Assembly (NCBI GenBank): GCA_964624585.1
Contig: CAZUXE010000001.1
Span: 39,365-103,364 of the forward strand
Origin: an uncultured bacterium
GTDB taxonomy: Bacteria > Hydrothermota > Tepidihabitantia > B3-TA06
Direction: 5' to 3'
Length of the DNA: 64,000 nucleotides
This document shows, in pieces, positions 49,213-63,997 of the stretch. Positions within the stretch are counted from its first letter, which is position 1. The number at the start of each line of letters is the position of its first letter. The position numbers and the translations under genes were made by a program. Below the pieces are notes generated by a model that was not told where the DNA came from, made no database searches, and saw only the letters and a program-made list of their open reading frames with translations.

Positions 49213-49773
49213 TCAATATTCCCTTATTACGCCTACCACTTTACCTACTATTTCAAAAGGATCGGTAATTATGGAATAAGCGGTATTTTCCGGCTTAAGG
49301 GCATGGACATCCCTGTGCATAATAAGCCGTTTGACAGTAGCCTCATCCGCCAGTCGAGCAACCACTATATCGCCTATTTTTGGCACCTGCTTAGGATCAA
49401 CTACTACCAGATCATCTTCCATAATACCTACTTCTATCATGGAATCACCCTTTACCCTAAGCATAAACGAACGGCGCCATTTTGAGGCGGTAAACACCTC
49501 TTCTACGTCTTCAACCGCCAAGGTGGGAGTACCTGCCGGAACACGTCCCATTATAGGAATTCCCCATGGTTCAACCTGAATAGCGCGGGCGTGTCCTTCC
49601 TTACGCTTTATAACCCCTTGAGTAGCCAGGTCGTCAAGATGAACTTTTACAGCTTTGGTACTTTTATACCCTAGCCCTGCGGCTATCTCACGAATTGAAG
49701 GCGGATAACCTCGTTCGGAAATAAACTCCCGAACAAAATCATAGATACGCATCTTTGGATTAGGTAGTCTCAC
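49213..49773 (-). CDS. lexA: LexA repressor (S24 peptidase)
   Basis: N-terminal wHTH (IREIAAGLGYKSTKAVKVHLDDLATQGVI). Cleavage-site region and S24 catalytic Ser/Lys (VKGDSMIEVGI ... VKRL). Start set at the GTG (49773), which has an AAGGAG RBS; the longer ORF-track start lies inside the promoter. Confidence 0.85.
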   Translation of the reverse strand: MRLPNPKMRIYDFVREFISERGYPPSIREIAAGLGYKSTKAVKVHLDDLATQGVIKRKEGHARAIQVEPWGIPIMGRVPAGTPTLAVEDVEEVFTASKWRRSFMLRVKGDSMIEVGIMEDDLVVVDPKQVPKIGDIVVARLADEATVKRLIMHRDVHALKPENTAYSIITDPFEIVGKVVGVIREY

Positions 49774-53095: not shown

Positions 53096-53098
53096 GAA

Positions 53099-53173
<75 letters not shown>

Positions 53174-53417
53174 ATTAATTAGGCTTTAGATTTTTTCAAA
53201 AATCCAAAACCTAGAAAGAATTATAAACCCAAGCTTAGCTTATGTCAAGCTTCTAAACCCTATACCGCAAAAACTATCCCTTCTTACTTGAAGAAAATAG
53301 ACAGAATACAAATAACATAAAGCCTTAACACCATAGTATTTACGTTTTATTACTACTGCCGCCCCCAAGGAGGATAAAAACACTTGACTCTACCTAAATT
53401 CTCGTTATCCTATTAGT

Positions 53418-54621: not shown

Positions 54622-55881
54622 TCATTCGTATCTTATCGCTTGAATAGGGTTAAGTTTGGAGGCCTTTTGCGCTGGATAGATTCCAAAGAATATGCCAACT
54701 GCAGCAGAGAAGGTGAAACCCAAAAGAATAGTCCACCAAGGCGATGCTGCGTTAAGAAACTTTACGAAAACAGAAACCAACTGGGATATTCCTATTCCGG
54801 CAAGAATACCAATCAAACCGCCAAGCATAGCAAGCATCACTGATTCCAAAAGAAACTGCATCATAATATCTTTATCGCGAGCGCCAAGGGCCTTACGAAC
54901 ACCTATCTCACGTGTCCGCTCTGAAACAGATACCAGCATTATATTCATGATACCGATACCGCCAACAAGAAGGGAAATCGCAGCAATACCTACCATAACA
55001 ATCCACATCACAGAGGTTATACCCTTAAGAGCGGTCATAATCATCTGTTGAGTATTCAAGCCAAAATCGTTTTCATCATCATAATGCAAACCACGTCTTA
55101 CTCGCAATAATTCCTCAACATCTTCTAAAGCTCTCTTCATAGGCACGCCCTTCTTGGGCAGCGCCTCTATAGAAAGACCACGCCATATTGAACGCCAACC
55201 GCGAGGAACAGGATTGTATTTAAGATAAGTTGATATCGGTATAATTATAACGTTATCCTGAGTGTTGCCAAACATTGTTCCTTTTTCTTCAAGGACACCG
55301 ACAACTAAATAGCGATGATTCTCAACATCAATAGTTTGGTCAATGGGGTTCTCAGCGCCAAAAAGATTCTCAGCAACATATGAACCAATTACGCAAACCA
55401 TACGACGATGCATACGATCACCTCTGGTAATAAACCTACCCGACTCAACCATTCGATTAGCGGTTAAGTCTCCGCCCTCACTTGTACCAATAAGTTCACA
55501 ATTTTGGGCCTTCTTACCCAAGCGTTTAAGAGTTCCAACACCTTTTTGTATGGAGGGAGCAGCGACTTCAATTGACGGCAAGCTTGCCAAGGCTTCTGCA
55601 TCTTCCACTGAAAAGTTGGGACGTTTACGAATTTCATCAAAGTCTACATTAGAGCGTTGTCCAGGCCCTCCCATCATCCATTCCATTTTCTGAATATAGA
55701 TTGTTGAAGACCCAAGGCTTGAAAATTGTTTAGCTATGGTGCGATTCAAGCCTTCGAGGAGCGAGAGTATAGCTATGACAGTCATAACACCTATAATTAT
55801 TCCTAAAGTAGTAAGAAACGAGCGCGACTTATGGTGCCTGAGAGAGCCAACAGACAAACCAAGCAAAGCCAAGAAACTCAT
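54622..55881 (-). CDS. ABC transporter permease, MacB/FtsX-type
   Basis: N-terminal TM, large periplasmic domain, C-terminal FtsX-like four-helix region. Confidence 0.8.
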   Translation of the reverse strand: MSFLALLGLSVGSLRHHKSRSFLTTLGIIIGVMTVIAILSLLEGLNRTIAKQFSSLGSSTIYIQKMEWMMGGPGQRSNVDFDEIRKRPNFSVEDAEALASLPSIEVAAPSIQKGVGTLKRLGKKAQNCELIGTSEGGDLTANRMVESGRFITRGDRMHRRMVCVIGSYVAENLFGAENPIDQTIDVENHRYLVVGVLEEKGTMFGNTQDNVIIIPISTYLKYNPVPRGWRSIWRGLSIEALPKKGVPMKRALEDVEELLRVRRGLHYDDENDFGLNTQQMIMTALKGITSVMWIVMVGIAAISLLVGGIGIMNIMLVSVSERTREIGVRKALGARDKDIMMQFLLESVMLAMLGGLIGILAGIGISQLVSVFVKFLNAASPWWTILLGFTFSAAVGIFFGIYPAQKASKLNPIQAIRYE

Positions 55882-56594
55882 ACAATCCTCCCATCGCGTA
55901 GGGTTATTACTCTCTTTGCATGTTGGGCCACACTGTCGTCATGAGTTACTACTATTAAAGTGCGTCCCTGTTCATTAAGTTCATCCAGAAGCTGCATAAT
56001 TTCCTCTTCAGTTTTTGAATCGAGATTACCTGTAGGTTCATCTGCAAGGATTATAGCCGGATTATTACTCAAGGCACGGGCTATAGCCACACGTTGTGAT
56101 TCACCACCTGAAAGTTCGTTGGGTTTATGATGCCCACGGTCAGCTAAACCTACCTTACGCAATGTATCTTCAACTATTTGTTCACGCTTCTCAGCGTCCA
56201 TTCCGGAATACTGTAGAGGAAGCTCTACGTTTTGAGCAGCTGTCAATCGTGGCAAAAGATTGAACTGCTGGAAAACAAATCCTACTTCATGGTTACGCAC
56301 ATAAGCCAATTGATCTGAATTATAACGCGATATCTCTTGACCTTTAAGGTGATATTCCCCCTCTGATGGAGTATCAAGACAACCTAGAATGTGCATAAGA
56401 GTGGATTTACCGGAACCTGAGGAACCCATAATTGCTACATAATCGCCTTCGTAGATATCAAGGTCTATATTAACCAAAGCCTTAACAGCAATACGGCCAG
56501 TAGCATAAACTCTGGATATCCCGTGCAAGCTAATTATCGGCTCTAGCCCCCTATTTTCACTTCTACTCTGGCGCCTTGGCCTTTTTTCCGCCAT
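55878..56594 (-). CDS. ABC transporter ATP-binding protein (MacB/LolD-like)
   Basis: Walker [10 protein letters not shown], signature LSGGESQR, Walker [12 protein letters not shown]. Confidence 0.9.
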
Positions 56595-57709
56595 CCGTCT
56601 TCTCCTTTCAGGGGTTTTACTTCGTCTCCGTCACTAAGTGTTCTTAATATTTTGTAGGGACCGGTCACAATCATGTTGCCTTTCTTTAATCCACTGACTA
56701 TTTCTACAGAACGTCCATCTGAAATACCTGTTTCTACAGCTGTTAATTTCACCGTATTGTCTTTTTTAACTACGAAGACTGTTTCACGGGATTCCTCATC
56801 TTCATTAATTTTCCTGCGCCCAATTGCCTGAAGAGGACATACTACAACATTTTTTCTTTCTGCAGTGATGATATCTGCTGTTACTGACATTCCCGGCCTT
56901 TGGGCTGGATCTGTATCTACAAGATCTATCAATACCTCAAAATCCGTTACGCCTTCAGCAGCTGAGGCCATAGAAGAGTTTGGCATGTAACCTACAGTGC
57001 TTACCTTAGCTTTGAAGAATGTATCCGGCATCGCGTCTAATTTTATTTTTGCACTCTGCCCAACCCTAAGGTTGACCACGTCGGATTCGTCAACATCCAC
57101 ACGCGCCTGCATATCTGAAAGATCAGCTATAGTAATAATTACTGTTCCAGCATTGTTCATAGTTCCCATCATCACTGTTTCACCCTGTTCAACGTTTAAG
57201 CGAACCACCCTACCTGAAATAGGAGCATATATTCTAGTTTTAGAAAGATTGTCTTGACTCTGGTCTAGGTGCGCACGCGCAACCTCGAAAGCCGTGCGTA
57301 AACGTTCAAATTCAGCTGATGAAATAAGGCTATCAACATAAAGAGCCTTTCCCCTGTCGTATGCCAACTTGGCTTGGTCATAATTCGCCTTATTTAAGTC
57401 GCGATTAGAACGGGAGCTTACGTCATCCAAAACGCATAACAACTGTCCCTTTCTTACCCTGTCTCCTTCCTTGACGTATAGCCTGCGAACCTTGGCAACT
57501 ATCTCGGCTGAAATATCAACCTGATTTGTTGCACGAAGCTCACCTGTGGCCGAAACAGTTGAAATTATATCTCTTGATTTAAGCGCGGCAACGTTTACTT
57601 CAGGAGCTTTTTTGCGCGATTTCATCAAATTAGAACAAACCAATAAACCAAGAATAACCACTACTAGTGAAATTAAAATTATATTTCTAATGCGCTTTTT
57701 CTTGTTCAT
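56543..57709 (-). CDS. Efflux periplasmic adaptor subunit (MacA/HlyD family)
   Basis: N-terminal anchor, coiled-coil hairpin, lipoyl/beta-barrel motifs (GELRATNQVDISAEI..., LDDV...). Confidence 0.8.
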   Translation of the reverse strand: MNKKKRIRNIILISLVVVILGLLVCSNLMKSRKKAPEVNVAALKSRDIISTVSATGELRATNQVDISAEIVAKVRRLYVKEGDRVRKGQLLCVLDDVSSRSNRDLNKANYDQAKLAYDRGKALYVDSLISSAEFERLRTAFEVARAHLDQSQDNLSKTRIYAPISGRVVRLNVEQGETVMMGTMNNAGTVIITIADLSDMQARVDVDESDVVNLRVGQSAKIKLDAMPDTFFKAKVSTVGYMPNSSMASAAEGVTDFEVLIDLVDTDPAQRPGMSVTADIITAERKNVVVCPLQAIGRRKINEDEESRETVFVVKKDNTVKLTAVETGISDGRSVEIVSGLKKGNMIVTGPYKILRTLSDGDEVKPLKGEDGWRKKGQGARVEVKIGG

Positions 57710-59004
57710 CTATCCTCCGCGAGAACCTGAAGGTTGGTCCCCAAAAAATAATTTAATTCAGCGCGAGACGACCAGTATGCGGCCAGAGTCTCAACATAGG
57801 ACCGCTCAGCCGTAGCCAACTCAGCCCCTACCTGCAACAAATCGGCAAGGGACTGCGAACCAAGTTCGTGCCGCTTGGCAGAAAGTCGATATACTTCACG
57901 CGAAAGTTCAAGATTTTTCCCAGCCGCTTCCCAGTTTTTATAAGACACCTCTTGCGCAGCAATGAGAGAGGCAAGCCGCTGACGCCAGACCAACTTCTGT
58001 TGGGCAAAATTGACTATAGCTTCTTTTCGCCTTAAACGCGCTCTATTAATTGCTAAAGCCCTTCCTTTAATATCTATGAAGGAAAAAGACAAGGAAAGAC
58101 CATAAGTTGTTGGCGTATTTTTCCATTGTGATAGATCTGGTATTGGGCCATTTTGAGCAAAATTCTTTGAAGCGTCGAACGACAAAGAAGGTAATATCGT
58201 CCCCCAGGCCCCCCAATACGCTAAATTAGACGATGAAACCTGTTTTTTCAAAACCTCAAAATCGGGATTAGATTCCAACATAGCCATAGATACCACTGTT
58301 GAAGAAAGTGAATCCGGATTTTCTGGCAAAGGTAAATTTTCCACCTTTATATTCTTGTATTCATCAAGACCAAGCAAATCAGCAAAAACACGTTGCTTAT
58401 TTTCTATATCCATATGTGTATTAAGAATTTCTGTCTCAGCTGTCAAAAGAAAGGATTCAGCTCGCAATTTTTCGGCTTTGTTTGCCGCACCAAGTTCAAA
58501 TTTCTTCACAACTATTCTAAAGTTTTCCTGCGCTCGCAATTTCTTTTGCTCGGCGCTTTCCGAAAGCGCCTGCGATTTTGCCAGATTATAGTAGGCTCTT
58601 TCCACGTCTAATATTAATCTAGCTATCTTTTGCCGCGATTGCGCTTGTGCGCTAGCATTGTTTTGGAATCCGCCTAGGAAGCTAAAAATAACTGAAGCGT
58701 CCAAAACCGGCTGAGACAAAGAAACATTGCTTCGCCACATCCCTTTACCTAAACTATCAAGAACCATAGAGTTAGTGGAAGATGACGACCTTAAATTCGG
58801 AAGCAAAGATGCAATTCCTTCCGCCAAACTCTGCAGGCCCTGCTCTTTATCTAGCTTAGCCTTTTCAATGGCTAGACTATTTTCCATAGCATATTCTATT
58901 GCGTCTTCCAAATTGATAGGACTACCGTTTGAGGTTTTTATCCGCGAGGCCTGAACCTGCGTAAATAGTAATGTTGTAAAAATTGTTATGGCAAGACTTT
59001 TAAT
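57706..59004 (-). CDS. TolC-family outer-membrane efflux protein; probable non-ATG (ATT) start at 59004
   Basis: TolC-like paired coiled-coil/beta-barrel repeats. The ORF-track start (TTG at 58911) yields a protein without a signal peptide. The same frame stays open upstream to 59025 and encodes (M)KSLAITIFTTLLFTQVQA|S, with AGGAG 5 nt before the ATT at 59004-59002. Confidence 0.7.
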   Translation of the reverse strand: MKSLAITIFTTLLFTQVQASRIKTSNGSPINLEDAIEYAMENSLAIEKAKLDKEQGLQSLAEGIASLLPNLRSSSSTNSMVLDSLGKGMWRSNVSLSQPVLDASVIFSFLGGFQNNASAQAQSRQKIARLILDVERAYYNLAKSQALSESAEQKKLRAQENFRIVVKKFELGAANKAEKLRAESFLLTAETEILNTHMDIENKQRVFADLLGLDEYKNIKVENLPLPENPDSLSSTVVSMAMLESNPDFEVLKKQVSSSNLAYWGAWGTILPSLSFDASKNFAQNGPIPDLSQWKNTPTTYGLSLSFSFIDIKGRALAINRARLRRKEAIVNFAQQKLVWRQRLASLIAAQEVSYKNWEAAGKNLELSREVYRLSAKRHELGSQSLADLLQVGAELATAERSYVETLAAYWSSRAELNYFLGTNLQVLAEDR

Positions 59005-59250
59005 GTCCTCTCCTAGGTTAATTTTTCAAAATATCCTAAATCTTCACTCTCACATGTCTGTACAAGAATTCCAATAAAAACCCGCACTGGATATAAATTC
59101 TACAAAAATACCGACATATTTATTCATTACTTATAAACATATCACTATGTCTTTATTCCTATATCTTTTAGACGCATTGCTACAATAAAAGTTACAACAA
59201 AGAACTTGCAAGTAAGTTATTAATTGTATGAAGCTCGTAAAAATGAGGAA

Positions 59251-59276
59251 GGGGCGGTTCGCAACCGCCCCTTTTA
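59251..59276 (-). terminator. Intrinsic terminator hairpin downstream of the PorV-like gene
   Basis: ggggcggtt-cgc-aaccgcccc perfect 9-bp stem. T-rich tract on both sides. Confidence 0.55.
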
Positions 59277-59303: not shown

Positions 59304-60389
59304 CTAGAACTCTATCCCCAACGAAGCTCTATGAACAGGACTAAGATACCAATGCCATTCAAAACTGTAATCGACAGCGACTTTGTAGCCACTGACCGGT
59401 ATTCTTACGCCAAGTCCAGCCGATGGACCACGACTATTACGATTGGAAAGAACCTCACGCATAATCAGTCCGACATCGGGAGTTGACGCTTGATTTGCAT
59501 CTTTATCGCTCTTCAGGTTTGGAGCGGTATTAAGACCAAAACCAGTTCGCAGGAAGAACATCTCGTTAAGAGCGTATTCTAAACCTATGGCGCCTTTTGC
59601 CGATTGATCTCCCAGATGTACGAAATCAGCCTCAAGAGTAAGCCGGGAAGGAGAACCTTCAACAAGGTCTATAGCCAATCCGCCTGCAAATGTGAAAGGA
59701 AGCCGGAAAGGCTCAGATATAAACTCAGCAGGGATATCTTTTTTCTGCAGGGTATCTTTTTTCGTATTAAAGCCCAGGGTATTACCCTTGTAAGCCATAT
59801 CAGGACCGAAGTTCTGTAATACGAATCCCAATCTGAGATTATTAATACCGATATTGTACACTGCACCAACATCAACAGCCCATCCAACGGCAGAAACCTG
59901 ATCAAGGGCCAAGTCAATTGCCTTAATGGTTATTCCCGCGGTAAACTTGTCAGTCATTTGACGGGCATAACTAAGACCTATTGCATAGTTATTTGCAGTG
60001 TAGAAATTACCGGTGCCGTTTTGTCTCTCTATTGTTGTTACCTCTATCGGGCCGGAAAGGTGCGCCAGCGCCTGTATTCCTATAGCTCCTGTTGGTCCTG
60101 CAGGAAATACAACACCCAGATTCTCTTCAAGCATTCCTGCAAAAAGAATAGCCTGACCAAACGAAGCGCTAGGGGTTTTGACAGAAGCAATCCCGGCAGG
60201 ATTCCAGTAAAGAGCGTCGGGACCGTTAGCCATTGCTGTGTAGGCGCACCCCATGCTGATAGGACGAGCGCCGCCGCCCATAGTCAGGAAGGACGCAGAG
60301 GAACCTGCCCCACCCAGACGGGCAGCAAGAGGAGTGCACAAAGCTGCCAGCACGAGGAGGCCAACTGTAAGTAGTCTTTTGCTTTTCAT
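59304..60389 (-). CDS. PorV/FadL-like outer-membrane beta-barrel protein (T9SS-associated family)
   Basis: Signal peptide. N-terminal signature GGGARPISMGCAYTAMANGPDALYWNPAGIA shared by PorV/PorQ and FadL-type barrels. C-terminal Phe. Sits 11 nt downstream of a large T9SS cargo gene. Confidence 0.55.
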   Translation of the reverse strand: MKSKRLLTVGLLVLAALCTPLAARLGGAGSSASFLTMGGGARPISMGCAYTAMANGPDALYWNPAGIASVKTPSASFGQAILFAGMLEENLGVVFPAGPTGAIGIQALAHLSGPIEVTTIERQNGTGNFYTANNYAIGLSYARQMTDKFTAGITIKAIDLALDQVSAVGWAVDVGAVYNIGINNLRLGFVLQNFGPDMAYKGNTLGFNTKKDTLQKKDIPAEFISEPFRLPFTFAGGLAIDLVEGSPSRLTLEADFVHLGDQSAKGAIGLEYALNEMFFLRTGFGLNTAPNLKSDKDANQASTPDVGLIMREVLSNRNSRGPSAGLGVRIPVSGYKVAVDYSFEWHWYLSPVHRASLGIEF

Positions 60390-60400
60390 TTCTACCTCCT

Positions 60401-63400
60401 CTAATTAGATTTAACAATGGCAAACTTGCCTGTCGCTTGTTTACCATCTTTGGTTTTAACCTGCCATATATACAAGCCGTTGGAACAATCAAGGCCTTCA
60501 CTGGTCAACAGATTCCAGTCTTCGGATCCTGCTGAACCCAGAAGACCTGTTCCATCATGCTCTATAGTTCTTATAAGCAATCCGGCGGAATTGAATATGC
60601 GTATAGTACATGTCTGAGGCAAGTTCTGGAAGATAACGTGTCTGGCGTATTTATTTTCGTCCCAGGGAGCGGTAATGTAGTACGGATTAGGAACCACACG
60701 AACCGAATCAAGGGTGCGTACATCCTGCGCTGTATCGTATTCCACAGGAATCGTTGTAAAACGACATCTATCGCCAGCTACGGTAGCCTTAAGGGTCTTA
60801 ATCAAGAACTGGTCACCCTGTTGCGGCAATATAGCGTTAGGATTCTGTTTATACACAAAGGAATCTATAAGGAACGTATCCCCTGAAGCTGTCCTGAAAG
60901 TATCAATAAGAAGAAGCGTATCTTTGAAAGTTATTTCAAACTCTTTGCTTCCGGGTTGAATTTTATCCTTGTATATGAAGAGTTTATCGCCGTGATCAAG
61001 TACATCGTCCTTGTTCAATCCTTTAGCGCTCTTACCGTGGGACCAAAGCAGTGCAAATTTACCGCTTCCGCCACCGTAACGGGAAACAGTAATTGGCATA
61101 GTCTTGCCCTTATCATCTTTCCCGGGAGCCACAGTTATCAAGTAGTCATGTGTATAGGGAACAGCGCCGCCAGCGGTTTGAGGGAAACCTACATTCCAGT
61201 TTAGGGTAGTGGTTGACTTGAGCCATCCTGTATGTAGAGTGTCTATTAATGTATCCAAATCAAGGGTATCAACCGATACACCAGCTATCTGAATCTTAAC
61301 ACCATCTACAACAGGGCCGCTTTCAACTCCGGAATGCAGAAGGAATGTATCAACATTAGATTTACTAGCAGGATTTGTAATATCCTTAATATAAGCATAC
61401 TTTACCGCATTATTCGTATCAGCAAAGAAACCTACTTCGTATTCGTCTCCTGTAACCTGATCCGGCGAAACAACACTAACATTTACAAAAGCATTTCCTC
61501 TACTGGATACCCACTTAAGATTGCTGACATCTGATTTCTGCCATCCTAGAGGATTAGAGCGCGGAACAGCCCAATAAGTTTTTCCTGTTTTACCGCCTTC
61601 AAGAGAACTTACATTTTCCAAAGGCTGAGAACGAGAGTACGAAGTTACTGAATAATAGTAAACTTTGCCATTGTCGACCTTTTCATCAACATAATAATGT
61701 TTAAGACCGGTCTGACCACTAAGTTGTTCTGCTGCATAAGTCTTGACAGTAAATTTAGCACCTGAAATAGGAGTAACGATATCTCCCTTTTCAGGATGCT
61801 TGTCTTCCAGAATCGTAATTTGAGCACCGTCAATGAATATAACGTCACCAGGTTTGTAAGGATAGTAATCCTGACCATCTGTACCACCTGATGTTGGGGT
61901 AGAATTAGTTACAGCTGTAACGTGAGCAATAGCATCAACAAGCTTAGTAATTGTACCTGAAGAAACATTACCGCTGCTTCCGCCAGCTATCGCCTTAATT
62001 GCAACATCTGCAGTTCCGTTCCCAACAACAGAAGCTTCCGCAGTGGTCTCAAAAGTAACTGGCGATTTGTTTGTAATGGTAGAATCCGTAGATACCTTTG
62101 TACCCTTAGGAATAACGGTTGTATCGGTAGAATCGGCAGTTACAGTAAAAGTAACCGTTCCGGTAGCATTAACTGAACCTGGAATTTTAACAACTTTGCC
62201 GTCTATCGTATCAAGAACACAGTAGCCGCCTTCTTTAAGAGCCTCTTCGTTATAGCTTAATTGTTTCTGATCACCAATGTTATATATAAGGTAGTAAAGA
62301 TTACCGGAAACAGGATCTTTTTTGAAAGTAAGTGTATAAGTGTTGTTGCCAAACCCTATTTTTGCAAGGTCAGCACTCGGATGGAATCCAAGAAACTTTC
62401 CTACCGCTGTGGAAGGCCCAACTGTATGGTCAACAATTACGGTATCCGGATTCTTTGAATCAGCCAAATCATAATCTGCAAGCAAGTCCCAAGTTTCTGC
62501 AAGACCTGAAAGACTTCTGTAAACACGGTAACCTTCAAAAGTAGGCTGATGACTCATAGGATCAATGTAACCTTCAGGACTGCTACTCCAATTAAGATAG
62601 ACTTTACCATTACCTGGAATTACGTTTAATTGAGGATTCGGTGGAGGAGCGTATCCGAAATAGCCGTTGTTGAACTGAATTTTTGCAGCTTTCGCTTTCT
62701 CCTGAAGTTCATCTAGCGAATAGGCCACTATAACCGCGATGGTCACGTTAATCTCTTCTCCAGCCTTAAGCACATCATAGGGACCACAGTTCAGAAGCAT
62801 ACGCACATCATTAGGGTTCTGCCAGGTGTTAAATTGAGTGGAAGCCATGTAGACATACTTCAAGCTATCATGAGCATCTAAATCAATATCAGAACCATTC
62901 TGCCATGTTTCAAAACCAGTCAAGCCTATATCGCCTGGAGTATCAAGAAGAACCGCGCCAATGTAACCTGCTGGTGTTACCCAGCCTGGTTCAGCGCCAT
63001 CGGAATCATAGGTATAGCCCATGTTCAATTCCTTATCGAAACCAATAAGGTCATCCCAGGCGGCAGGATCCCCTGGACTGGTTCCGCCAGCTGCCTGTCC
63101 TATGTCATTATCCATAAAGAAGGAGACATATATATCTTCAAGATCGAACTCATTCATATTCTTAATCTTATAGTTTATGAATATGTATGAATCGTTGTAC
63201 TCGTAGTTCCAGGCATAGGTGCGCTGCTCTATCCTTAAGCCTTGTCCCCAAACGTCATATACTCCACCGCCTGAATTACGTACCCAAATTGTAGTAGCGT
63301 CTTTTGCAGGAATCCAGTCACCGGCACGGGCATAGGAATCCTGCATGGAGATTATATCACCATTTGCAGGAGAAACCTCTGGCATATGTATTTTTCTGCG

Positions 63401-63997
63401 CAAAGGATTGATAGCTGCACTATCCACAAAAGGCCATTTTACCTGATAGCTAAGCGGTGTAGTTCCAGGAAGCGCAAACAGCCTCTGTTCTTCACCGGTA
63501 AAACCAAAACCCTTGGGGATAGTCATGTCGCTAAAGTAAAGACCGGCAGCGCTAATATCACCCATACCGCCGCCATCTTTCATCCGCGGTTCGGCCATAG
63601 CGCCCATATCAGTATAAAATGCAGTTTTACTTACGTTAGGCTTGCGTTCTTCACCGTTTCCAGTCGGGTACATACTGCCGACCCATAGTCCCCAAGCCCA
63701 ACAGTAATACTGCTCTGCTCCCTTTGGATATTCGGCATTATGTCCTGGAGCTGATGCTCGTAAAGCAACTGATCTTCGAGGATACTCACCTCTATATTCA
63801 TGCTTATCCGCGAGATGCCTGGGAAATACGCCACCTTGCAAGGTATTACTTACAAGAAAATCAGAAAGATTTCCGGCGTCAACCCACCATATTCTCCAAA
63901 AATCAGCGGGTTCATCGCTTTCTTTAGCGCCACTTAGCAGGCTCACCCGACGCGGCTGACGTCTTGAGTTAACCTCCAGCTGTTGGGAATCACTCAT
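60401..63997 (-). CDS. Very large secreted T9SS-sorted protein (>=1198 aa), N-terminus probably beyond the window edge
   Basis: C-terminal type-A CTD (VVPNPYYI..., IRIFNSAGLLIRTI..., NGLYIWQVKTKDGKQATGKFAIVKSN). FN3-like motif (GYRVYRS). No signal peptide after the ATG 3 nt from the window end, so the true start is probably upstream. Confidence 0.5.
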   Translation of the reverse strand: MSDSQQLEVNSRRQPRRVSLLSGAKESDEPADFWRIWWVDAGNLSDFLVSNTLQGGVFPRHLADKHEYRGEYPRRSVALRASAPGHNAEYPKGAEQYYCWAWGLWVGSMYPTGNGEERKPNVSKTAFYTDMGAMAEPRMKDGGGMGDISAAGLYFSDMTIPKGFGFTGEEQRLFALPGTTPLSYQVKWPFVDSAAINPLRRKIHMPEVSPANGDIISMQDSYARAGDWIPAKDATTIWVRNSGGGVYDVWGQGLRIEQRTYAWNYEYNDSYIFINYKIKNMNEFDLEDIYVSFFMDNDIGQAAGGTSPGDPAAWDDLIGFDKELNMGYTYDSDGAEPGWVTPAGYIGAVLLDTPGDIGLTGFETWQNGSDIDLDAHDSLKYVYMASTQFNTWQNPNDVRMLLNCGPYDVLKAGEEINVTIAVIVAYSLDELQEKAKAAKIQFNNGYFGYAPPPNPQLNVIPGNGKVYLNWSSSPEGYIDPMSHQPTFEGYRVYRSLSGLAETWDLLADYDLADSKNPDTVIVDHTVGPSTAVGKFLGFHPSADLAKIGFGNNTYTLTFKKDPVSGNLYYLIYNIGDQKQLSYNEEALKEGGYCVLDTIDGKVVKIPGSVNATGTVTFTVTADSTDTTVIPKGTKVSTDSTITNKSPVTFETTAEASVVGNGTADVAIKAIAGGSSGNVSSGTITKLVDAIAHVTAVTNSTPTSGGTDGQDYYPYKPGDVIFIDGAQITILEDKHPEKGDIVTPISGAKFTVKTYAAEQLSGQTGLKHYYVDEKVDNGKVYYYSVTSYSRSQPLENVSSLEGGKTGKTYWAVPRSNPLGWQKSDVSNLKWVSSRGNAFVNVSVVSPDQVTGDEYEVGFFADTNNAVKYAYIKDITNPASKSNVDTFLLHSGVESGPVVDGVKIQIAGVSVDTLDLDTLIDTLHTGWLKSTTTLNWNVGFPQTAGGAVPYTHDYLITVAPGKDDKGKTMPITVSRYGGGSGKFALLWSHGKSAKGLNKDDVLDHGDKLFIYKDKIQPGSKEFEITFKDTLLLIDTFRTASGDTFLIDSFVYKQNPNAILPQQGDQFLIKTLKATVAGDRCRFTTIPVEYDTAQDVRTLDSVRVVPNPYYITAPWDENKYARHVIFQNLPQTCTIRIFNSAGLLIRTIEHDGTGLLGSAGSEDWNLLTSEGLDCSNGLYIWQVKTKDGKQATGKFAIVKSN

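Follow-up and report, generated by a model that had tools for sequence, protein, structure and literature searches.

Where does translation start in a gene for an exported outer-membrane channel when no canonical start codon (ATG, GTG or TTG) precedes the segment that would encode its signal peptide? The question is raised by a TolC-family gene, here called tolC, on the minus strand of a 64,000-nucleotide (nt) stretch of contig CAZUXE010000001.1 from an uncultured bacterium; the whole stretch is referred to as the window, and all positions are given in its coordinates. In the public annotation this gene (P0001, 401 aa, 100% identical to the window protein) starts at the TTG at 58911–58909. A sequence-only reading of the window had instead proposed the ATT at 59004–59002 as the initiator, with a Sec signal peptide encoded only in the in-frame extension upstream of the TTG. 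From the sequence of the locus and its comparison with orthologues, we conclude that AUU at 59004–59002 is probably the true start of the gene (probability about 0.85), and with the same confidence we regard translation from this codon, together with selection that keeps the weak codon in place, as the best explanation of the data.

Proposed start codon and predicted signal peptide

Read from the minus strand, the tolC frame is closed by an in-frame TGA at 59028–59026, 8 codons upstream of the ATT. The stop is followed by AAA ATT AAC CTA GGA GAG GAC and then by the ATT at 59004–59002; these codons contain a Shine-Dalgarno (SD) sequence, AGGAG (59014–59010), that is separated from the ATT by 5 nt (AGGAC). 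The codons from the ATT onward are ATT AAA AGT CTT GCC ATA ACA ATT TTT ACA ACA TTA CTA TTT ACG CAG GTT CAG GCC TCG, and the frame translates as I/M-KSLAITIFTTLLFTQVQA-SRIKTSNGSPINLEDAIEYA. No in-frame ATG, GTG or TTG occurs between the stop and the TTG at 58911–58909, which lies 31 codons downstream of the ATT; in an open reading frame (ORF) scan of the tolC frame the SD-anchored ATT is codon 7 and the first canonical start is codon 38. The open frame, its lack of canonical starts and the placement of the AGGAG had each been pointed out in the sequence-only reading and are borne out here. We also looked for an upstream ORF feeding into tolC or a frameshift into it, and by eye no long ORF in the other frames leads into the gene. 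The revised tolC-family coding sequence (57706–59004) comprises 432 aa plus the stop, an assignment based on the Pfam OEP match, the orthologues and homology to CmeC and OprM.

The product matches the Pfam OEP family (PF02321) with two repeats (E = 5.4e-36, 124.6 bits against a cut-off of 22) and is homologous to CmeC (4mt4, E = 4.6e-9 over residues 31–399 of the ATT-start protein) and to OprM (E = 4e-5). Residue 31 is where the similarity to CmeC sets in, which fits residues 1–19 as a signal peptide followed by a short linker. As the TTG encodes residue 32, just past the point where this similarity starts, a product initiated at the TTG would retain no export signal.

Signal-peptide assignment used simple criteria only, namely Kyte-Doolittle hydropathy and the residues at −3 and −1 of the cleavage site. 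The segment at 58948–59004 encodes a predicted signal peptide, (M)KSLAITIFTTLLFTQVQA, with cleavage predicted after VQA on the basis of translation and hydropathy. A predicted n-h-c layout (MK / SLAITIFTTLLF / TQVQA, with V at −3 and A at −1) is present in the ATT-start protein only. The maximum 9-residue hydropathy of the N-terminus is 2.23 from the ATT versus 0.52 from the TTG, where the product would begin MEDAIEYA, in agreement with the earlier claim that the TTG start leaves the protein without a signal peptide. OprM and CmeC carry a lipobox cysteine. The window TolC, unlike these two proteins, has none (no Cys within residues 1–30) and is therefore not a lipoprotein-type factor of the OprM/CmeC kind; a lipoprotein signal was ruled out on the same ground.

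Comparison of orthologous start regions

A protein search returned about 21 orthologues at 48–58% identity, after which identity drops to about 26%; other TolC-family hits outside this clade have 22–27% identity. Orthologue DNA was obtained from GTDB genomes (L001–L007, all metagenome-assembled genomes (MAGs) of candidate division WOR-3 or Ca. Stahlbacteria), from JGI metagenomes (L014–L020) and through exact-protein look-ups (L024–L029). For the start-region comparison we walked upstream in frame in the window and in 15 other distinct orthologous sequences (49–56% protein identity).

The 16 start regions align without gaps on one codon, as ..cc[a/t]AGGAG-N5-AT[T/C]-a..; AGGAG and the first two bases of that codon (AT) are the same in 16/16, whereas the 5-nt spacer and the codons further on differ. 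Ten sequences, the window among them, have ATT and six have ATC; ATG, GTG, TTG and ATA are absent from this position (0/16 each). We refer to the two codons jointly as AUY. In most orthologues the SD is extended to AAGGAGG or AGGAGG. Because the identical spacing recurs in the 15 other distinct sequences, the AGGAG-N5-AUY pattern lies far above chance.

Between the AUY and the in-frame stop 5–12 codons before it, 11 of the 16 sequences contain no ATG, GTG or TTG. Downstream, a canonical codon first occurs at +31 in the window, +26 in L005 and +19 in L028, in each case past the hydrophobic segment, so no canonical start can yield a signal peptide at these three loci. All sequences continue after the AUY with an open, hydrophobic segment (hydropathy maxima of 2.2–3.7 over 9 residues), and T is conserved at second codon positions after the AUY, a coding-type conservation across the 16 sequences. 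The predicted signal peptides of the orthologues, aligned as the sequence-only reading had suggested, begin at the homologous ATT or ATC codon, and AGGAG, 5 nt, ATT or ATC and a hydrophobic segment recur in 15/15 of the other orthologues, which supports the proposal of ATT as initiator and of a signal peptide confined to the extension. We looked for an orthologue with some other targeting signal behind a downstream TTG and found none.

The codon itself does not behave like an isoleucine codon: internal isoleucine codons of the tolC genes are 35% ATA, 43% ATC and 22% ATT, whereas at the start position ATA is found in 0/16 and ATT is the commonest. Base +4 is A in 15/16 sequences, versus a background of 21%; an A here makes a favourable context for initiation. 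On a neighbour-joining tree of the orthologues ATT and ATC are intermingled, so several flips between them are needed, and no lineage of the AUY clade has moved to ATG, GTG or TTG, each a single substitution away. ATG at this position occurs in 0/15 of the AUY-clade orthologues and only in the more distant L019/L020. These two (46–48% identity), L019 being the most divergent relative, have the same tolC-adaptor-ABC operon and lie on a long branch apart from the AUY clade; at the homologous position L019 has a plain ATG, beginning MKLVVMLLVVFSAATA|GEA, with a weaker SD (AAAGG-N5-ATG). The tree was rooted on L019, so the direction of change between ATG and AUY is an assumption.

One orthologue, L028, has an insertion about 60–190 nt after its ATC that encodes imperfect 6-residue repeats (ASYVQD/ASSVQN, about 5 copies). 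The repeats sit between the signal peptide and the conserved mature N-terminus, and the protein has 473 aa versus about 420 aa in the others.

The publicly called N-termini of the orthologue family (P0002–P0022) are ragged, with starts scattered along the gene. Many calls start inside the hydrophobic stretch (MLLTTLLPAQA..., LLLTTLL..., LAAVL...) and others deep in the mature protein, and P0018 and P0019 begin about 37–40 codons too far upstream and thereby take in the promoter-like motif described below (P0018 corresponds to L027 13–1380). Judged by the alignment of start regions, the public calls examined that reach the N-terminus are wrong there, being either truncated into or past the signal peptide or over-extended, and the TTG start of P0001 is likewise judged incorrect. 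We attribute the disagreement to a systematic annotation error, since gene callers accept only ATG, GTG and TTG. With such N-termini, localisation predictors would miss an outer-membrane protein, and pipelines that allow only these three codons will repeat the error for this tolC family.

Alternative explanations

Several observations weigh against initiation at the AUY. Five of the 16 loci have an upstream in-frame canonical codon (GTG at −2, ATG at −8, TTG at −8, TTG at −10 and ATG at −37); by eye, four of these five lack a well-placed SD. The ATG at −37, in L027, is preceded by AGGTG at 3-nt spacing; it is the codon used by public call P0018 and sits upstream of the conserved promoter-like motif. 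Several loci have a TTG or ATG 2–9 codons downstream of the AUY that would keep part of the hydrophobic core, and the product from the ATG at +4 in L025 retains a hydropathy of 3.14. There are close relatives among the 16 sequences, especially L001, L014 and L015, so the independent lineages are fewer than 16; we put them at 10–14, by estimate rather than computation. Finally, exact-sequence look-ups of the window protein and of a cluster mate gave no independent assembly on record, so for the exact window sequence the question of a base-call error rests on the orthologues.

It might be that the public annotation is right, that the protein starts at TTG 58911 with no cleavable signal peptide, and that the upstream open frame is accidental. 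This TTG is the first canonical start codon of the frame and the one the public call uses, but it has no SD of at least 5 nt at suitable spacing, and its product (hydropathy 0.52) starts where the CmeC similarity starts. Upstream of it, moreover, 16 sequences share an open hydrophobic segment whose reading frame is conserved, and the orthologues, with their scattered public starts, have no canonical codon at the position of the window TTG. We consider this explanation highly improbable. Hardly credible is an explanation in which the ATT is a base-call or assembly error, or a recent ATG-to-ATT mutation that has left a poorly expressed gene or pseudogene. A single base change separates the two codons, and the window probably derives from a metagenome assembly, the orthologues all being on MAG or metagenome contigs. 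The gene, however, is full length, with 48–58% identity throughout and its motifs conserved, and 15 further distinct sequences, taken from independent samples and assemblies, likewise have ATT or ATC at this codon, which makes a base-call error very unlikely.

Initiation might also take place at another codon near the AUY, the AUY then being an ordinary isoleucine codon or part of an extended ribosome-binding site. The candidates considered were the downstream TTG and ATG codons in the hydrophobic core of orthologues, ATA 58989 and ATT 59022 in the window, and the upstream canonical codons at five loci. Such alternatives do exist at several loci, the ATG at +4 of L025 with its hydrophobic N-terminus being one, yet they are not conserved in position and there is none in the window, L005 or L028. 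The AUY alone keeps a constant and suitable spacing from the invariant AGGAG, neither ATT 59022 nor ATA 58989 has an SD of at least 5 nt at suitable spacing, and the absence of ATA (0/16 versus 35%) is unlike an isoleucine codon. We therefore think a neighbouring start improbable. Just as improbable is a lineage-wide relaxation of start-codon selection, under which AUU and AUC starts would be common and not particular to tolC. Gene callers would hide such starts, and translation in WOR-3 is uncharacterised. Against this, a gene-centred start scan that took in every window ORF of 150 codons or more found only tolC to have a distant canonical start with an SD-anchored AUY in the gap, and L019, with the same operon, uses ATG. 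All other plausible genes of this size begin with a canonical codon close to the stop upstream of them; a strong SD accompanies most of these starts, and some of the genes overlap the preceding one. As no other ORF of this size in the window needs a non-canonical start, the AUY start appears specific to tolC, and we give relaxed selection little credence. A raw count of the codons found 4–9 nt after any AGGAG or GGAGG proved too noisy and was replaced by the gene-centred scan.

Upstream promoter-like element and leader

A promoter-like element, GTAAC-N16-CGTCTAA (GTAACTTTTATTGTAGCAATGCGTCTAA), lies at 59168–59195 on the minus strand, 165–192 nt upstream of the ATT. The bipartite motif, (G/T)TAAC or TTTAC followed after N16/17 by CGTCTAA, is found upstream of tolC in 13/13 AUY loci examined (besides the window, L001–L006, L016, L018 and L024–L028), with −10 variants in L003 (GTCTAA after T) and L027 (GTCTAT). 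Across loci the motif is positioned 44–169 nt upstream of the AUY, and the leader measured from it is about 165 nt in the window versus about 75 nt in most loci. By eye, L019 has no such bipartite motif upstream.

Promoters of extracytoplasmic function (ECF) sigma factors are described as having AAC and then a T-tract in the −35 region and CGTC in the −10 region (PMC5758882). The window element agrees with this in its AAC-containing −35, its 16–17 nt spacer and its CGT(C/A) −10. It also resembles the B. subtilis SigW/X/M/V promoters (tGAAACnTTTt ... CGTC), with AAC at −35 and a T-tract, a 16-nt spacer and CGTC at −10, a likeness of sequence alone. We infer that the conserved element is an ECF-type promoter. 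CGTCTAA and AAC-N16-CGTC occur in the window at chance frequency only and are not enriched, so the motif is not that of a housekeeping promoter and the element appears specific to the tolC operon; its use as a genome-wide promoter motif was rejected for the same reason. A Pfam scan covering part of the window found no sigma-factor domain among the genes scanned.

Other candidates for the region were set aside. The only match to a sigma-70 promoter falls inside the coding region and within chance expectation. When the leader was scanned for known RNA elements with Rfam at a permissive threshold, nothing came up apart from a chance miRNA match to the terminator. We also rejected a conserved RNA structure hiding or presenting the SD and AUY: minimum free energy folds of −45 to +30 differ among the orthologues, with z-scores from −3.1 to +1.1.

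Five loci (L005, L006, L018, L024 and L028) have a second copy of the promoter-like motif, GCAAG(A/T)TTT - about N14 - GTCTAA, 110–160 nt upstream of the first, and L027 has a second copy 44 nt upstream of its AUY; second copies in several orthologous loci suggest tandem promoters. The window has a single copy. The leader of the window tolC also contains a minimal ATG-TGA at 59055–59050 (minus strand), which shares the tolC frame, precedes the ATT by 51 nt and lacks a recognisable SD. Its ATG (59055–59053) is the only in-frame ATG upstream, and the TGA follows directly; this start-stop is probably meaningless.

Proposed mechanism and comparison with known systems

Under initiation at the AUU, the strong SD at fixed spacing (AGGAG plus 5 nt) would anchor the 30S subunit on the codon, and the initiator formylmethionine (fMet) tRNA would pair with the near-cognate AUU or AUC with a mismatch at the third position. 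The product, MKSLAITIFTTLLFTQVQA|S..., would carry a normal Sec signal peptide. Since AUU and AUC are poor initiators, the start codon would cap synthesis of the outer-membrane channel relative to the three downstream genes with SD and ATG, and initiation factor IF3 may modulate initiation at the AUU. Selection would maintain the weak codon, allowing flips between AUU and AUC and never a change to AUG, GUG, UUG or AUA. Selection for a weak initiator best explains this alternation with no move to a strong codon, so that weak initiation would itself be the selected trait. Initiation at AUU, low output and modulation by IF3 are each put forward here as inferences.

In E. coli, AUA, AUC, AUU and CUG initiate at 1–2% of the output of AUG, with N-terminal fMet, and infC and pcnB are the only confirmed native genes with an AUU start. 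The tolC gene would be analogous to infC (encoding IF3) and pcnB in that a near-cognate AUU limits the translation of one gene, IF3 discriminates against the codon, and selection keeps it. It differs from both in that it encodes an exported outer-membrane channel and not a factor of translation or RNA metabolism, in that AUC alternates with AUU, and in that it belongs to an uncultivated phylum. The sequence-only reading had taken an ATT start as a sign of low-level or autoregulated translation. This agrees with the literature on AUU and by analogy may apply to tolC; no autoregulatory logic is evident for tolC, unlike infC, which senses its own product.

Conserved AUU and AUA starts in S. aureus always have an extended SD, yield some 10% of the AUG output and are presumed sensitive to IF3 (PMC13009471). 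Like cvfC1 (AUU), ccpN (AUA) and infC (AUA) of S. aureus, tolC would pair a weak initiator with an SD that is strong or extended and keeps a fixed spacing, both being conserved across species, and cvfC1, like tolC, is the first gene of an operon. The S. aureus sites, which lie in a different phylum and different gene classes, were mapped by retapamulin ribosome profiling and reporters, whereas the tolC start comes from comparative sequence; AUA is used at the S. aureus starts and apparently avoided at tolC. By its sequence features, the tolC start belongs with infC, pcnB, cvfC1 and ccpN as a conserved near-cognate start with a strong SD.

Confirmed native bacterial starts that are not AUG, GUG or UUG are very few (E. 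coli infC and pcnB; S. aureus cvfC1, ccpN and infC), and at tolC a near-cognate start appears to have been kept through about 50% protein divergence in an uncultivated phylum. Four features are new here: the class of gene, which encodes an exported channel of the TolC family; the WOR-3/Stahlbacteria lineage; the alternation of AUU and AUC without AUA; and the association with an ECF-type promoter. In the literature that we searched, no TolC-family gene is reported to have a non-canonical start, and the sole documented bacterial AUC start that came up is that of a small upstream ORF.

A further possibility, which we raise tentatively and consider doubtful, is that the AUY start is a conserved regulatory sensor within a two-layer control of the envelope export channel. 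A stress-inducible ECF-type promoter would switch on transcription of the pump operon, and the IF3-discriminated AUU or AUC, with AUA excluded, would tie channel synthesis to the level of IF3, to ribosome maturity or to growth phase. In the literature searched, such a pairing of an ECF promoter with an IF3-sensitive start is not described for any TolC-family gene. If this were true, AUC would be added as a native start of a conserved protein. The AUY start and ECF-type promoter together offer a testable model for the dosing of envelope pumps.

Pump operon and neighbouring genes

A strong intrinsic terminator (59249–59273, minus strand) closes the upstream gene; its stem is 11 bp long, includes 7 GC pairs and is followed by a T-run. 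tolC is thus the leading gene of a separate transcription unit. All three genes that follow are on the minus strand. The first encodes a membrane-fusion (MacA/HlyD-like) adaptor with HlyD_D23/HlyD_3 matches (56543–57709) and has its own GGAGG SD and an ATG that overlaps the tolC stop (ATGA). It is followed by an ABC ATPase gene (ABC_tran, 55878–56594; SD AAGGAG and ATG) and a gene for a MacB-type permease (MacB_PCD and FtsX, 54622–55881; SD GGAGG and ATG). Judged by this arrangement and the domain matches, tolC is the first of four genes in an operon that encodes a tripartite pump of the MacAB-TolC type with split MacB, and the order tolC-adaptor-ATPase-permease is also found in L024, L025, L027, L028 and L029.

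The system resembles E. coli MacAB-TolC and the TolC/OprM/CmeC channels in its two OEP repeats, HlyD/MacA-like adaptor, ABC ATPase and MacB_PCD plus FtsX permease. In E. coli, tolC is an unlinked gene. Unlike E. coli MacAB-TolC, MacB is split here into separate ATPase and permease genes, and tolC comes first in the operon.

The terminator forms part of a GC-rich hairpin at 59247–59275 (GGGGCGGTT/AACCGCCCC) with T-runs on either side, which make it a potential bidirectional terminator between a beta-barrel-like gene and the tolC promoter. The gene next upstream (59304–60389, minus strand) encodes a protein of 361 aa whose N-terminus resembles a signal peptide and which matches DUF5723 and FadL/Toluene_X only weakly. 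Ahead of it, at 60401–63997 (minus strand), lies a gene whose 1198-aa product carries a Baseplate_J-like domain (PF04865, E = 2e-13). The same pair is present in L025 (1–1297), as a 1192-aa Baseplate_J protein and a 383-aa protein with no Pfam hit, and L028 (1–919) encodes a counterpart of the weakly matching 361-aa protein. On the other side of the operon, a tRNA-Pro(GGG) gene at 53098–53174 (minus strand) is the sole RNA gene detected in the window by an Rfam scan at gathering thresholds, and near it a LexA-like repressor (LexA_DNA_bind and Peptidase_S24) is encoded at 49213–49773 (minus strand).

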